DNA of 64,000 nucleotides from Escherichia phage EC121, in the sequence record NC_054909.1. One strand, given 5' to 3'. This document shows, piece by piece, positions 2,418 through 56,078 of the stretch. A program made the translations under genes and the position numbers. How positions within the stretch are numbered: position 1 is the stretch's first letter; the number at the start of each line of letters is the position of its first letter. The notes beneath the pieces are model-generated. The model saw nothing but the letters and a program-made list of their open reading frames with translations. It ran no database searches and had not been told where the DNA came from.

Positions 2418-2447
2418 ATTATACCACATCCTTGTGGTAAAGTAAAC
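2418..2447 (-). promoter_or_regulatory. sigma70-type early promoter (GTTTAC, 17 nt, TATAAT)
   Basis: Minus strand reads GTTTACTTTACCACAAGGATGTGGTATAAT just upstream of rIIA.1; a near-identical copy lies at 48692-48721. Confidence 0.6.
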
Positions 2448-4264
2448 TACTGGCTCATCCATTCTTTACGAAGGTCAGCATTATCCCCCATGAGCATTTC
2501 AAAAAGCTCTTTCCAATTCTCAGGAAGTTTAACAACATCATATACTGGGTTTTGAATCATCTCACGATATTCAGATTTTTCCAAAGAGCCAAGTCCCTTA
2601 ATATAACGGATGCTATGTTTAGGTAGAGCATCTTTGGCACTCTCATATTCAGCGACCGTATAAAACCATTCTTGTTTTTTACCGACCTGAGCGATGATTA
2701 CGGGAGTTTTGACGAAGCGAATTCTTCCTTGTTCAAACAGTTCTGGCCAATTACTAAAAAATCCGAGCAGAGAAGGATAAATGCTTCCTAGACCATCGTG
2801 GTCAGCATCAGTCATAATAGCAATATTATGATAATTCAAGTTTTCAGCCTTTTCACCAAGAACTAATCCAGTGATTGCGCAAATATCAAACAGTTCTTTG
2901 TTTTTAAGCATATCAGCATATGACATACCCCAACTGTTGAGAACTTTACCACGTAATGGATAACCGCCATGAAGTTCTTTATCACGAACATCAATAAGAT
3001 ATCCGATAGCAGAATCACCCTCAGTCAAGAAAAGAGTAGTGTCAGCGTCTTTACCGCAAAGATTCGCTTTAATATGTTTATGAACCTTAGCTTTAGAAGC
3101 CTTTTTAGCTGCTTTAGTTTCTGCTGCCTTTTCTGCCGCCAATTTACGAGCCAAAGCAGCTTCAATAATTGGCATTAAAATTGCTTCATTATTTAAAATA
3201 GCACGTGAAATCTTTTTAGCATCAAGCTGAATATGACTACGAATTTCACCAAATGGAGAAGTCAAACGCTCTTTAGTCTGAGAATCAAATCGCATGTTTT
3301 TCATATCACGAACAAACATAACGATAGTCAAACATTCTTTAACCCGTGCTTTAGTTACATCAATTTTGAACTTACGTTTGATTTGTGGAATAAGGTCTTC
3401 ACAAATATCATCCATAACGCAGTCAATGTGATGGCCGCCATTCTTAGTATGAATGTTATTAACGTATGTTAATTGACGAAAACCATCCAGTGAACGACCA
3501 ATCGCAATAGAACAATTTTCTTGTTCTTGAACGATAGCATGCTCATCATATTGGCGTGCGTATTTCTTAAAATTGCCCTGAACCTTTTTACCATTAAAGG
3601 TAAATTGAATATCAGGATAAACTACTGCAAGTGTCTGGAGACGATCTAGTGTAATGTCAAGATAAACCTGAGATAGCTCATTAGTTTCAAATGACATAAA
3701 ATCAGGAATGAAAGTAACACGAGTTCCTTTCCATTTTCCAGGAATAGTTTCCCATGATTTATTTTCCATGCCATTTGAACAACGAACTACAATATTATTT
3801 TGACCATCGCCAGTTTCACCGACAAACATCACAGAAAAAATGTTAGTTAAACTAGAACCAACACCGTTCATACCGCCAGTGACGCGTTCTTTATCATCAC
3901 CGAAGTTACCACCTGCTTTTGGAATAGTCCAGGCGGCAACAGGACCAGGAATTTCTTCGCCAGTAGGTGTTTTAACCATCGCTTGTGGAATACCACGACC
4001 GTTATCTTCAACAGTTACTTGATTGTTTTTAATAGTAACATTAATTTTATTCGCGAATTTAAACTTAGTACGAATACCTTCATCTACCGAGTTATCGATA
4101 ATTTCATCAATAAGCTTAACAAGACCAGGTACATACTGAACACTTTCCCATTTACCAAACAGAAAGCGCTCATGCATTTCATTAGCGGAAGAGCCAATGT
4201 ACATGCCGCTACGCTTTTTGATATGTTCAATATCGCTCAGAATTTTAATTTCATTCTTAATCAT
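2447..4264 (-). CDS. 39: DNA topoisomerase II large subunit, uninterrupted gp39 (T4 gene 39 plus gene 60 as one ORF)
   Basis: 605 aa from ATG at 4264 (track start 4267 is GTG); GyrB-like ATPase N-terminus; C-terminal 160 aa matches recalled T4 gp60 with no bypass gap or mobA insertion. Confidence 0.92.
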   Translation of the reverse strand: MIKNEIKILSDIEHIKKRSGMYIGSSANEMHERFLFGKWESVQYVPGLVKLIDEIIDNSVDEGIRTKFKFANKINVTIKNNQVTVEDNGRGIPQAMVKTPTGEEIPGPVAAWTIPKAGGNFGDDKERVTGGMNGVGSSLTNIFSVMFVGETGDGQNNIVVRCSNGMENKSWETIPGKWKGTRVTFIPDFMSFETNELSQVYLDITLDRLQTLAVVYPDIQFTFNGKKVQGNFKKYARQYDEHAIVQEQENCSIAIGRSLDGFRQLTYVNNIHTKNGGHHIDCVMDDICEDLIPQIKRKFKIDVTKARVKECLTIVMFVRDMKNMRFDSQTKERLTSPFGEIRSHIQLDAKKISRAILNNEAILMPIIEAALARKLAAEKAAETKAAKKASKAKVHKHIKANLCGKDADTTLFLTEGDSAIGYLIDVRDKELHGGYPLRGKVLNSWGMSYADMLKNKELFDICAITGLVLGEKAENLNYHNIAIMTDADHDGLGSIYPSLLGFFSNWPELFEQGRIRFVKTPVIIAQVGKKQEWFYTVAEYESAKDALPKHSIRYIKGLGSLEKSEYREMIQNPVYDVVKLPENWKELFEMLMGDNADLRKEWMSQ

Positions 4265-4317
4265 CACTTATCCTCGTTTGGTTTCGGGAATATTATACTC
4301 CGGTAATCATAAAGCTA

Positions 4318-5155: not shown

Positions 5156-5569
5156 TTATTCCTTAAAGTGAGCTTTCAACATCTGATACAAAGACCATGC
5201 CTGTACATTATTTTCAATAGTAACGTTCATAACCGGGAATTCAGATGGATCAGTTATTGTTGCAGATTCTTCCTGCTCTTCAGCTGCCTGGTATGGATTT
5301 TCAACTTCATTAAAGAATTCAGCTTCATTCGATGAAAGCCAAATAAAATCTTCATCCAAAATATCTTTACCAGAAGATAGTACTAAATTTCCAGCAAATG
5401 ACATAATTTTAATAGGACGCCCAAGAGCATCCACATCTAAAATTTTAAAAGGATGCATACCTAAACGGCGTGCATAGATTCCGTTATCAGTATGGTCTTT
5501 AATAAAATTTTCTTGAGCTTGTTTATTTTTAAATTGATACCATTTATTAACTTCAAATTTAATAGCCAT
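5156..5569 (-). CDS. hypothetical protein
   Basis: 137-aa ORF, tightly packed; acidic C-terminal half. Confidence 0.5.
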
Positions 5570-5784
5570 TAATAAATTTCCTTCCAGTAAGTTGTACCAT
5601 CTTCAGTGATTTCACGAAATACACCGTAAATTGGTTGTTTATCCCCAACCTTTTCATACACATAAACCGAAGTCAAGTGAGTAAACTTAGCAGTGTGTTC
5701 CTTTTGAACTACTACCAAATCTGGATCGAATAACACATCTTCAAATTCGTCATTAGTGCAGCTCTGAACAATTTTACGTTTCAT
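5569..5784 (-). CDS. hypothetical small protein
   Basis: 71-aa ORF with GAGGAA RBS 5 nt upstream of ATG; overlaps downstream start by 1 nt. Confidence 0.5.
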
Positions 5785-5823
5785 TACAATTTCCTCATTA
5801 ATTGAACATTGGAGCGATGCGTT

Positions 5824-5945
5824 TCAGAAGAGTAGCAGCACCTTTGGCAAATTTTCCATTTTATTCTCCAAGTTATTTTCTGTATCAGTAGTTGATATTG
5901 ATATAGTACCATAATCAACTACTGATGTATACAGTTTTATGAAAA
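5824..5945 (-). repeat. promoter-leader cassette copy A (palindromic variant) with 11-codon upstream ORF
   Basis: Shares about 60 nt with copies at 25.1 and 53.1 kb (GGTACTATA..ATCAACTACTGATACAG..TTGGAGAATAAAATG); here a 17-bp inverted repeat flanks the -10 region; leader ATG at 5859 opens MENLPKVLLLF-stop. Confidence 0.5.
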
Positions 5946-5956
5946 AATTTTAAACT

Positions 5957-6445
5957 TTATGCATAGAGAGCTTTGCTATAGTGTTTAATCCAGCTTTCAG
6001 GAATGACTTTGTATGTTCCTAAAAATACCACATTATACAGCTTAACACCGTCTTCTACCCACTGATCGGTAATGTATGCGCACATAGCACGAGTATAAAC
6101 AGCCAAACCATCATCTTTGATAAATTTAAATTCACAAGGAGCAATGAACTTAATAGCCTGACCGAGTTTCCACTTAAAGTCTACACCTACATGCGAAGTA
6201 TCAATCGTTTCAATTCCTTTAGCAGGAACAGCTTTCAAAAACGCAGATTCAAGAAATTTCGCACGAACATAGCCAAACTGAGGTTTAGACTTTCCATCTT
6301 TAGGAATGATACGCACTTTTACTTCAGAATCTTCATCTTTAACGCCGTGTTTAAGCTGAATGCTTACAATTTCGACCAATTTTCCTGCTGCTTTAGAACG
6401 GGATTTATCAGATACACGAGCAATTTCACCAATATTAATAATCAT
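5957..6445 (-). CDS. hypothetical protein, paralog A of a tandem pair (motB-region)
   Basis: 162 aa; C-terminal CAYITDQWVEDGVKLYNVV matches CGWVTDQWIEDGVELLNVV in the next ORF. Confidence 0.55.
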   Translation of the reverse strand: MIINIGEIARVSDKSRSKAAGKLVEIVSIQLKHGVKDEDSEVKVRIIPKDGKSKPQFGYVRAKFLESAFLKAVPAKGIETIDTSHVGVDFKWKLGQAIKFIAPCEFKFIKDDGLAVYTRAMCAYITDQWVEDGVKLYNVVFLGTYKVIPESWIKHYSKALYA

Positions 6446-6489
6446 AGTTATCTCTCACTTGTTAAAAAGATTTTATACTCCACAGGACC

Positions 6490-6519
6490 ATTATACTCTG
6501 GTCCCAAGAGTTTGTAAAC
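6490..6519 (-). promoter_or_regulatory. early promoter (GTTTAC, 18 nt, TATAAT)
   Basis: Minus strand GTTTACAAACTCTTGGGACCAGAGTATAAT between the two paralogs; -10 lies in the loop of a short hairpin. Confidence 0.5.
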
Positions 6520-6521
6520 TA

Positions 6522-7007
6522 TTAATTCAAAATAGCTACCACTGCACTACGAGGTACTACGCTAAAATCACCTGCATGAACAACGTTCAGAAGTTCAACA
6601 CCATCTTCAATCCATTGGTCTGTTACCCAACCACAGACCGAAATAAATGGAGTCTTGATAGCTACTGCACGAGTCAAAAGGTCAGTAGGATCAACTTCTT
6701 TGAAGAGGATAAGCTCTGCTTCAAAGACTATAGTTTTAATTACTTCATCATTATCTAAGCGATGTGCTCGAATCACGTAAGCTTTATTCTTATCATACCA
6801 ATTACTTTTTGAAAAACTTTTAACCACAAACTCGCCTTCACCAAAAACACTAGTCAATGCTTTATAACCCAAATCTAGTTCAGTAGTTTTAATTTCAGTT
6901 TCAACCAGTTTGTAGGTTTTGCCAATTTCGATGGTCCGAGCAGTCATAAAGGTTTCCTTAATTTCTAATGGTTTAACAAGAGTGCCGTACATGCTTGCTA
7001 TATCCAT
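6522..7007 (-). CDS. hypothetical protein, paralog B of a tandem pair
   Basis: 161 aa; shares C-terminal motif with 5957-6445. Confidence 0.55.
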   Translation of the reverse strand: MDIASMYGTLVKPLEIKETFMTARTIEIGKTYKLVETEIKTTELDLGYKALTSVFGEGEFVVKSFSKSNWYDKNKAYVIRAHRLDNDEVIKTIVFEAELILFKEVDPTDLLTRAVAIKTPFISVCGWVTDQWIEDGVELLNVVHAGDFSVVPRSAVVAILN

Positions 7008-24815: not shown

Positions 24816-25052
24816 TCAAATGCAAGTAGTAATTACTCCAGTAGTGCTTATGCAGGTATTACCCATTTGCACACCTAAAGATCCATTTGTATTCACATGA
24901 AGATTATCATCAATTTTAACTGATATTTTACCATTAGTGTGAATAACGGTGCTAGATTTAATCACAGGTTGAGTATCATTTTCAACACTAACAAATGGAA
25001 CTGCTACTAATGCAACTAAACAAACTGCTAAACATCCCATAACAATTTTCAT
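24816..25052 (-). CDS. small secreted/membrane protein
   Basis: 78 aa from ATG at 25052 (track start is TTG); hydrophobic N-terminus; driven by cassette copy B. Confidence 0.5.
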   Translation of the reverse strand: MKIVMGCLAVCLVALVAVPFVSVENDTQPVIKSSTVIHTNGKISVKIDDNLHVNTNGSLGVQMGNTCISTTGVITTCI

Positions 25053-25150
25053 TTTATTCTCCAAATCTGTATCAGTAGTTGATAGTTGTATAGTACCACA
25101 GAAGAACAGTCTTGTAAACAGTTTTGTGAAAATTTTTTAGGGAATTCTAA
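25053..25150 (-). repeat. promoter-leader cassette copy B
   Basis: CCCTAAAAAATTTTCACAAAACTGTTTAC, 17 nt, GGTACTATACAACTATCAACTACTGATACAGATTTGGAGAATAAAAATG; homologous to copies at 5.9 and 53.1 kb. Confidence 0.6.
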
Positions 25151-52841: not shown

Positions 52842-52996
52842 ATCTTCATACGATTCTTTAACTTCTTCAACTTTTACACCATCATATGAAATGTCTGATT
52901 TGTAAACCCAAACACCGCGACGCTTACCGTCAATTTCAACAAAAACTTTACCATCTCCTTGTGCATCTACCGGAGCATTATCTGGGAACCATTCGC

Positions 52997-53068
52997 CTAA
53001 GAGTTCAAAAGTTCCAGAGATTTCTTTACCGAAGTAGATACCCTCTTATTGATAGTTACAGTTTTCAT
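52997..53068 (-). other. 23-codon leader ORF behind cassette copy C
   Basis: ATG with GGAGAA RBS encodes MKTVTINKRVSTSVKKSLELLNS; it overlaps, in another frame, the open upstream extension of the ATPase ORF. Confidence 0.35.
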
Positions 53069-53150
53069 TTTATTCTCCAAATCTATATCAGTTGATAGTT
53101 GTATAGTACCATAAAGCTTTATGCTTGTAAACAGTTTTGTGAAAAATTTT
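53069..53150 (-). repeat. promoter-leader cassette copy C
   Basis: TTTTTCACAAAACTGTTTAC, 17 nt, GGTACTATACAACTATCAACTGATATAGATTTGGAGAATAAAATG. Confidence 0.6.
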
Positions 53151-53162
53151 TGAAATAAAAAA

Positions 53163-55914: not shown

Positions 55915-56078
55915 TACATACTCCTTTGAATAATATCAATAATGTTGTTCACCAAATTATACGTAAACATTGGGTAATTATATTGAATCATCACATACAC
56001 AACAAACAAAACTTTCATTCTCTTCTCCTTGGCAGTTGACAAGATTACTATACCATAACCTTGCCAACTTGTAAACCA

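Follow-up and report, generated by a model that had tools for sequence, protein, structure and literature searches.

The interval between motB and cef in Escherichia phage EC121, a Tequatrovirus (T4-like), raises two questions: why an early promoter should be wrapped in a palindrome, and what the 11-codon open reading frame (ORF) that separates this promoter from cef is doing there. We addressed them in a window of 64,000 nucleotides (nt) of the phage genome (NC_054909.1), whose positions are used below; features lie on the minus strand unless stated otherwise. An earlier note on this DNA had described at this place a promoter cassette (hereafter cassette A) with an inverted repeat around its -10 region and with an ATG opening only a short ORF, and had proposed either a regulatory upstream ORF or structure, or a scar of cassette recombination. 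The explanation that we consider probable is that cassette A is an early promoter of the promoter-early stem-loop (PeSL) kind known from T4-like phages, with an embedded hairpin that would mark the boundary of read-through transcripts, and that the 11-codon ORF is what a 208-bp deletion left of a larger gene. The motB-cef intergenic stretch measures 172 bp here and 170 bp in phage T4 (AF158101), where it holds the same cassette, palindrome and remnant ORF; the T4 record carries no annotation inside this interval.

The predicted promoter starts just past the motB stop codon (TAA, 5959-5957) with an AT-rich, UP-element-like region at 5935-5956 (83% A+T over the 30 nt upstream of the -35), a flank that is also present in two further cassettes of the window, B and C. 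Its layout is TATACA-17-TACTAT, a sigma-70-type T4 early arrangement with a TGn extension. The -35 element GTATACA (5926-5932, hexamer TATACA at 5931-5926) can be aligned to GTTTACA in cassettes B and C, as well as to cef promoters from other genera; the extended -10 (TGG-TACTAT, 5903-5911) comprises TGn at 5911-5909 and the hexamer at 5908-5903. From the usual spacing, transcription would start at A5896, 7 nt past the -10. The leader then runs through a conserved 5' end and GGAGAATAAAATG to the ATG at 5859-5857, which is entered directly from the Shine-Dalgarno (SD) region GGAGAATAAAA (5859-5869, GGAG at 5869-5866).

The palindrome is built from these same parts. Its 5' arm ATCAGTAGTTGAT (5914-5926) lies inside the 17-nt spacer, upstream of the predicted start, and does not vary among relatives, whether or not they have the intact gene discussed below; its 3' arm ATCAACTACTGAT (5884-5896) is the conserved 5' end of the leader, with the predicted +1 as its first base. 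The arms are complementary at 13 of 13 positions and stand 17 nt apart; an alternative register has 20-nt arms, 85% complementary, closed by a 3-nt loop (CTA) within the -10 hexamer. A further 5-bp outer stem pairs CTGTA (5934-5930) with TACAG (5884-5880), so that the near-palindrome wrapped round the promoter reaches 55 nt (5880-5934). In a read-through RNA this would fold into an outer stem, a 4-nt bulge, a stem of 12-13 bp, a 2x2 internal loop, a 5-bp stem and a 3-nt loop, the -10 lying at the tip. An inverted repeat enclosing the -10 of a promoter cassette is thus borne out, and the leader recurs in cassettes B and C, as had been proposed; the arms of 17 bp claimed by the earlier note are obtained only if the 4-nt bulge is admitted, the perfect arms being of 13 bp. 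RNA folding, which the same note had suggested, gave a strong hairpin of -23 kcal/mol (z = -5.8), and none of 200 shuffles folded as well.

We found this to be the sole perfect 13-bp inverted repeat with a loop of up to 40 nt in the 64 kb, and dinucleotide shuffles average 0.1. This bears on the possibility that the palindrome has no function, being either a product of chance or a scar left by inverted duplication or recombination of the leader and carried along by the near-identity of the cassettes. Such an origin finds some support in the existence of the same leader without a complementary spacer in cassettes B and C and in Mosigvirus LF82-9, and of part of the left arm without the right one in Jiaodavirus JD18. 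The scarcity of such repeats speaks against it, as do the comparisons with other promoters and other genera given below, and we regard it as unlikely.

What the hairpin could do follows from the position of its arms. The 5' arm is promoter spacer, and the 3' arm would be the first 13-17 nt of the promoter's own transcript. RNA started locally at about A5896 could not form the hairpin, because the 5' arm lies upstream of that start. Transcripts reading through from the strong motB promoter (TTTACA-17-TATAAT at 6518-6490) would contain both arms and would fold into the -23 kcal/mol hairpin 22 nt past the motB stop. In the mechanism that we propose, the hairpin would mark and bound the upstream transcripts, and expression of cef and of the goF-like gene would then depend on the local promoter. 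Its most likely role would be that of an attenuator or pause site, or of a stabiliser of the 3' end of motB mRNA. We do not regard it as an intrinsic terminator, since the stem is AT-rich and the sequence 3' of it (ACAGAAAAUAAC / ACAGAAAATAAC) contains no U-tract; a terminator scan of both strands did not call it. An RNase III site was considered for the stem of about 22 bp found in Tequatrovirus and is disfavoured, the stems of other genera having only 8-14 bp. With its end at 5880, the hairpin stays about 10 nt clear of the SD (5869-5866) and does not sequester it. A search of positions 5400-6700 with Rfam covariance models, on both strands, gave no match at E <=1.

The comparison with related phages that the earlier note had called for was made over several genera. 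Within Tequatrovirus the inverted repeat is kept: of 537 records matching the 85-nt cassette, 495 do so with an identity of at least 90%, a single arm variant was seen (Lv5cm, in which an A-U pair becomes G.U), and the outer stem is polymorphic between G-C, A-U and A.C. The cassette as a whole is 95-99% conserved in this genus, and conservation alone proves little against a functionless palindrome that persists by descent. More telling are the other genera. In nine of them the early promoter directly before cef has a stem, which brackets the -10 in eight, and the sequences of these stems differ: GGGCTATG-ATAC-TATAGCCC in Karamvirus, GGGTTATG...TATAACCC in Gelderlandvirus, GGTCTATG...TATAGACC in Mosigvirus, GGTAGGAGCATG...TATGTTCCTACC in Marfavirus, TTGGTGTAGGAG...CTCCTACACCAA in Winklervirus, AGGGTAGTAGTG...TACTATTACCCT in Dhakavirus and TGTAGT...GCTACA in Roskildevirus.

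We aligned 18 distinct sequences from IMG/VR without gaps, anchored on the promoter, over a helix of 14 pairs. Of the cells, 80% are paired, and 7 of the 14 pairs have changed on both sides in a compensatory manner. The covariation score is 0.346. Shuffles give 0.150 +/- 0.019, none of 500 coming up to the observed value, and sliding the partners yields no more than 0.154. What is conserved thus appears to be the design of the element and not its sequence, and the hairpin looks to be maintained by selection. Hairpins with compensatory changes at the cef promoters of at least seven other genera are also difficult to reconcile with chance or with a recombination scar.

The same arrangement is present at other early promoters of the window. 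We retained 17 obvious ones on the minus strand, each with a GTTTAC-type -35, a 17-nt spacer and an SD and ATG downstream, and folded for each a region of 48 nt from the spacer to +25. Seven of the 17 form a strong hairpin between the spacer and the first transcribed stretch, with energies of -17 to -23.5 kcal/mol (z <= -3.7), a stability of -17 kcal/mol being reached by 0.3% of random 48-nt windows, which again argues against an accidental origin. The motB promoter itself is among the seven, with GGGACCA...TGGTCCT round its -10 (6518-6470, -17.4 kcal/mol, z = -3.7), and similar stems occur at the promoters with their -35 at 56075 and 18767. In three cases (61263-61200, 51690-51630 and 7636-7575, the first coordinate being the start of the -35 hexamer) the 3' arm takes in the SD of the promoter's own gene; such pairings include TCCTCGGTTAGTTGTGG...ACACCATAGCTACTGAGGA, at -23.5 kcal/mol, and GTTCCTC...GAGGAAC. 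By analogy with the late promoters of e, soc and I-TevI, these could represent an early version of the same design, in which read-through RNA would hide the SD and locally started RNA would not.

A palindrome centred on the -10 might instead work as DNA, either as a cruciform that modulates the -10 in a supercoil-dependent manner or as a palindromic operator for a dimeric protein. The fold with DNA parameters is indeed stable (-13.6 kcal/mol, z = -5.6), and a cruciform over the -10 was reportedly found by Horwitz and Loeb in 1988 to repress an engineered E. coli promoter. In addition, PeSL stem-loops have been located at recombination crossover points (PMC2839356). Both forms of this idea call for both strands. 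In each of the seven hairpins, however, the sense strand folds better than the antisense strand, by 3.3-11.3 kcal/mol, because each contains 1-4 G.U pairs, which become A.C mismatches on the other strand. For the 48-nt core of cassette A the values are -18.9 in sense and -15.6 kcal/mol in antisense. Moreover, stem sequences are wholly different between genera with the pairing kept, which indicates a structure and not a recognition sequence for a shared protein, and a 17-nt loop or bulged centre flanked by AT-rich arms would make extrusion kinetically unfavourable. We consider a DNA-level element quite unlikely.

The strand comparison bears in the same way on an antisense terminator, in which the hairpin on the plus strand, followed by TTTTATGAAAAAATTTT (the complement of the UP-like region), would stop opposing transcripts. 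The plus-strand sequence past the stem is T-rich, as such a terminator would require, and the same geometry holds for any early promoter with an A-rich upstream element. For each hairpin of the window that was compared, however, the antisense strand gives the weaker fold, G.U cells outnumber A.C by 7 to 1 in the core of the cross-genus helix, the terminator scan made no call on either strand, and we know of no promoter that sends transcription in from the plus-strand side, none having been searched for. This explanation is hardly credible. The strand and G.U data favour a hairpin of the sense transcript over cruciform, symmetric protein site and antisense terminator alike, and the element would accordingly be one that acts in RNA.

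Several observations weigh against a read-through hairpin maintained by selection, or limit how far the evidence for it carries. The sense strand is the more stable one in 62-67% of random windows, with a mean background bias of -0.9 to -2.2 kcal/mol, and 42% of stable random windows reach -3.3, so that the strand test lends support without deciding the matter. The TGn/-10 consensus by itself dictates the three innermost pairs of the cross-genus helix, and the covarying pairs are outside these. The hairpin of Tequatrovirus is paired in a different register from that helix and has a longer stem; being nearly invariant, it offers no usable covariation within the genus, and the covariation evidence comes from the different register of the other genera. 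In Jiaodavirus the promoter of the homologue of the 89-aa gene described below keeps about 11 nt of the left arm with no complementary leader, and the cef promoter has just a small hairpin inside the spacer. The -35 of cassette A is weak, and a generic sigma-70 scan left the promoter under threshold (4/6 + 4/6). As what follows the hairpin is ACAGAAAAUAAC and not a U-tract, any termination there would be non-canonical. Finally, a literature search for the 5' and 3' ends of T4 transcripts at motB-cef returned nothing usable.

The second question, that of the 11-codon ORF, is answered by relatives in which the gene behind the cassette is intact. The ORF (MENLPKVLLLF-stop, 5824-5859) begins at the cassette ATG and ends with TGA at 5826-5824; both the ORF and the 71-aa gene that follows it, cef, are confirmed, the gap from the stop to the cef ATG (5784) being 39 nt and not the 40 previously given. 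In phages BP32 and A6-6, alignment and translation show that the same ATG opens an ORF of 89 aa (MENLIIIEQ...RIAPLFN) ending 13 nt before cef. These genomes contain 208 extra bp between ATGGAAAA and ATGTAAAA, and 208 is not a multiple of 3. The junction in EC121 falls at 5851-5856, within an AAAA common to the two members of this 8-bp near-repeat, which would be the signature of a slipped or microhomology-mediated deletion. The remnant consists of the first codons joined out of frame to the final ~55 nt of the 89-aa gene; the 3' end of the latter can still be read at 5798-5850 in the original frame (...KFAKGAATLLKRIAPMFN-TAA), and its old stop (TAA, 5800-5798) abuts the cef SD (GAGG, 5796-5793). 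T4 has the same junction, with 6 differences in ~55 nt, 3 of which fall on third positions of codons in the old frame. That the intact ORFs of relatives might be unrelated insertions is excluded by the alignment of BP32 and A6-6. The 89-aa gene belongs to PHROG 3720, of unknown function, and a Pfam search of its protein gave no match.

By tblastn, the intact ORF is present at 90% identity or more in 261 phage records, and a cef protein at least 90% identical to that of the window in 497 records. The deletion type may therefore characterize roughly half of Tequatrovirus, with 261 of ~497 keeping the gene. The palindrome is older than the deletion, since it is identical in genomes with the intact gene. 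Originally, the 89-aa gene that the cassette would have driven lay between motB and cef. In the lineage of T4 and EC121 this gene lost 208 bp between ATGGAAAA and ATGTAAAA in a deletion of the slippage type, which destroyed it and left the promoter, which would now drive cef through a 112-nt leader. It is cef that the promoter of cassette A now serves. The recombination scar suspected by the earlier note therefore exists, though it is intragenic, at the 8-bp near-repeat, and lies neither in nor between cassettes, which rejects a cassette-cassette recombination as the origin of the ORF.

This history also bears on the proposal that the ORF is a regulatory upstream ORF or leader peptide, the translation of its 11 codons or the stalling of ribosomes there controlling cef. 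The ORF has a strong GGAG SD at good spacing and its stop lies close to cef; it is probably translated, and translation of so long a leader might, as a side effect, shield the RNA or oppose Rho (for polarity in T4 early RNA, see PMC2988021). As a frame-shifted remnant it is not conserved as such: about half of the Tequatroviruses have the full gene, the peptide varies among deletion alleles (MENLPKVLLLF, MENSLKVLILF, MENLLKVLLLF, MENLPKVLLLFF), and in other genera cef stands directly behind the promoter with no upstream ORF between. The leader RNA folds into no significant structure (z = 0.26). The earlier note had expected its regulatory proposal to fail if relatives lacked the inverted repeat and the upstream ORF; the former is kept in them, and the latter is absent in many. 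We judge control of cef by this ORF very improbable, and hold that it is probably translated but meaningless, outside the mechanism proposed here. In T4 and many relatives, the 11-codon ORF before cef would be best annotated as a pseudogene remnant of the PHROG 3720 gene.

The motB-cef interval is found in three states: with both a motB paralogue and the 89-aa gene, with only the latter, and with the gene deleted. The first is seen in A6-6 (record positions 2061-2480), in which an extra 139-aa motB paralogue lies between motB and the cassette, at the place corresponding to 5945-5960 of the window. The right boundary of this paralogue is the cassette edge TGCATAAAGTTTAAAA, which provides the stop-codon context of both motB and the paralogue, and it is plausible from this arrangement that the indel arose by recombination at the cassette or between the paralogues. 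Outside the genus, Klebsiella phage JD18 (Jiaodavirus, 1120-1190) has a homologue of the 89-aa gene with 41% protein identity. The promoter of this homologue agrees with the Tequatrovirus cassette in its -35 and over the initial ~11 nt of its spacer (ACATCAGTAGT), continues with another leader and has no hairpin, and this piece of promoter is much better conserved than the gene behind it. The small intra-spacer hairpin of the Jiaodavirus cef promoter corresponds to a motif, CCACAaggaTGTGG, that abuts the -10 and occurs in identical form at several early promoters, among them those at 2446-2400 and 48719-48670 of the window.

PeSL cassettes have been described in T4-like phages (Arbiol et al., 2010, PMC2839356; Comeau et al., 2014, PMC4122927). 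Their stem-loops, which lie in the -35 to -10 interval or overlap the -10, were proposed to be terminators or attenuators of upstream transcription, and one of them terminated in a lacZ assay (PMC2839356). Cassette A resembles them in having an AT-rich region that follows the stop codon of the gene upstream, an early promoter of the sigma-70 type whose spacer is 17 nt long, a stable stem-loop bracketing the -10, and an SD and start codon at its 3' end; it is also repeated in the genome (B and C) and, like copy C, sits at a site of whole-gene indels between relatives. PeSLs are also on record for the pair T4/PST, where their consensus reads TTTACW-N17-TAYWAT (PMC4122927); the -10 of cassette A fits TAYWAT, and its -35 is off TTTACW at one position. 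There are also differences. Its stem is AT-rich and long, unlike the polyG/polyC stems of RB49/phi1; the T4/PST stem-loops lie just upstream of the promoter (PMC4122927), whereas that of cassette A spans the -10 and has the 5' end of the transcript as its 3' arm; and the deletion that made the 11-codon ORF took place at microhomology inside a gene, not by recombination between PeSLs. By analogy with these elements, the stem-loop of cassette A may act as a terminator or attenuator.

A second parallel is offered by the T4 genes e, soc, 49 and I-TevI, in which the promoter lies inside a hairpin that only upstream transcripts can fold (PMC3014915, PMC2988022). In cassette A too the promoter is within the hairpin DNA and, judging by position, local RNA would be without the 5' arm. 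In those genes, however, the internal promoter is of the late (or middle) class, and the SD or the AUG is buried by the 3' arm, whereas the promoter of cassette A is early and its hairpin stops short of the SD, so that translation is not directly blocked. With the "uber" UP/-35/TGn/-10 early promoters of T4 (Hinton, 2010, PMC2988021), cassette A shares a GTTTAC-like -35, the TGn, the -10, an A/T-rich upstream region and further conserved positions; it differs in that its -35 is degenerate relative to the early consensus GTTTAC / TTTACA (GTATAC, hexamer TATACA) and that it is a predicted promoter. As for intrinsic terminators, cassette A has in common with them a stable intergenic hairpin right after a stop codon, and departs from them in its AT-rich stem, the missing U-tract and the negative scan; GGGAGCCTTCGGGCTCCCTTTTTT, which precedes cassette C, is by comparison canonical.

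It is tempting to extend these observations to early promoters in general. Pairing of the spacer with the promoter's own leader or SD could be a general, selected design of T4-type early promoters, a suggestion that we put forward tentatively and that is open to more doubt than the explanation of cassette A itself; it is based on the seven of 17 promoters of the window and on the compensatory changes that cef promoters show over at least eight genera. If true, each such promoter would sort transcripts by origin, upstream RNA being folded and local RNA open, and the folded upstream RNA would be bounded, stabilised at its 3' end or, where the stem includes the SD, silenced in translation. The late-promoter trick known from e, soc and I-TevI would thereby be extended to the early class, and PeSL stem-loops would gain a post-transcriptional rationale, one that we did not find stated for T4 itself. 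Because the hairpin is kept across genera by compensatory change and spacer-leader hairpins occur at ~40% of early promoters here, T4-type phages may routinely tell read-through from locally initiated early RNA. This bears on an old question, the organisation of immediate-early and delayed-early expression and of the stability of early mRNA.

Cassettes B (~25040-25140) and C (~53060-53160), also on the minus strand, share everything with cassette A except the spacer, namely the -35 flank, TGGTACTATA, the leader ATCAAC(TAC)TGATAYAG and TTGGAGAATAAAATG; their spacers are unrelated. The SD region GGAGAATAAAA is identical in all three (5859-5869, 25052-25062 and 53068-53078) and matches exactly the consensus of strong RegB cleavage sites, GG*AGRAYARAA (Uzan and Miller, 2010, PMC3014915). 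The early mRNAs of the three cassettes are thus likely RegB targets, as predicted from this match, and a cut at GGAGAATAAAA would place the hairpin of cassette A near the new 3' end of the upstream fragment. The likeness to RegB sites concerns the SD part of the cassette and not the palindrome.

Copy C (52842-53160) lies between the nrdC.11 and nrdC.10 homologues, and its spacer holds a palindrome of its own, CATAAAGCTTTATG. It opens only a 23-codon ORF followed by ~155 nt free of genes, and some relatives have at this site 260-480 extra bp with additional ORFs; its ORF may be a second gene remnant behind a cassette.

The genes surrounding cassette A are all on the minus strand. Upstream is motB (5957-6445); downstream are cef (5569-5784, 71 aa), identified by Pfam (T4_Cef, E = 3e-35), PHROG 1354 and annotation in relatives, the goF-like gene (5156-5569) and the gp39 topoisomerase gene (2447-4267). 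The latter, gene 39 for the large subunit of topoisomerase II, is here a single ORF of 606 aa, whose T4 counterpart is split into 39 and 60 by the mobA-region insertion.

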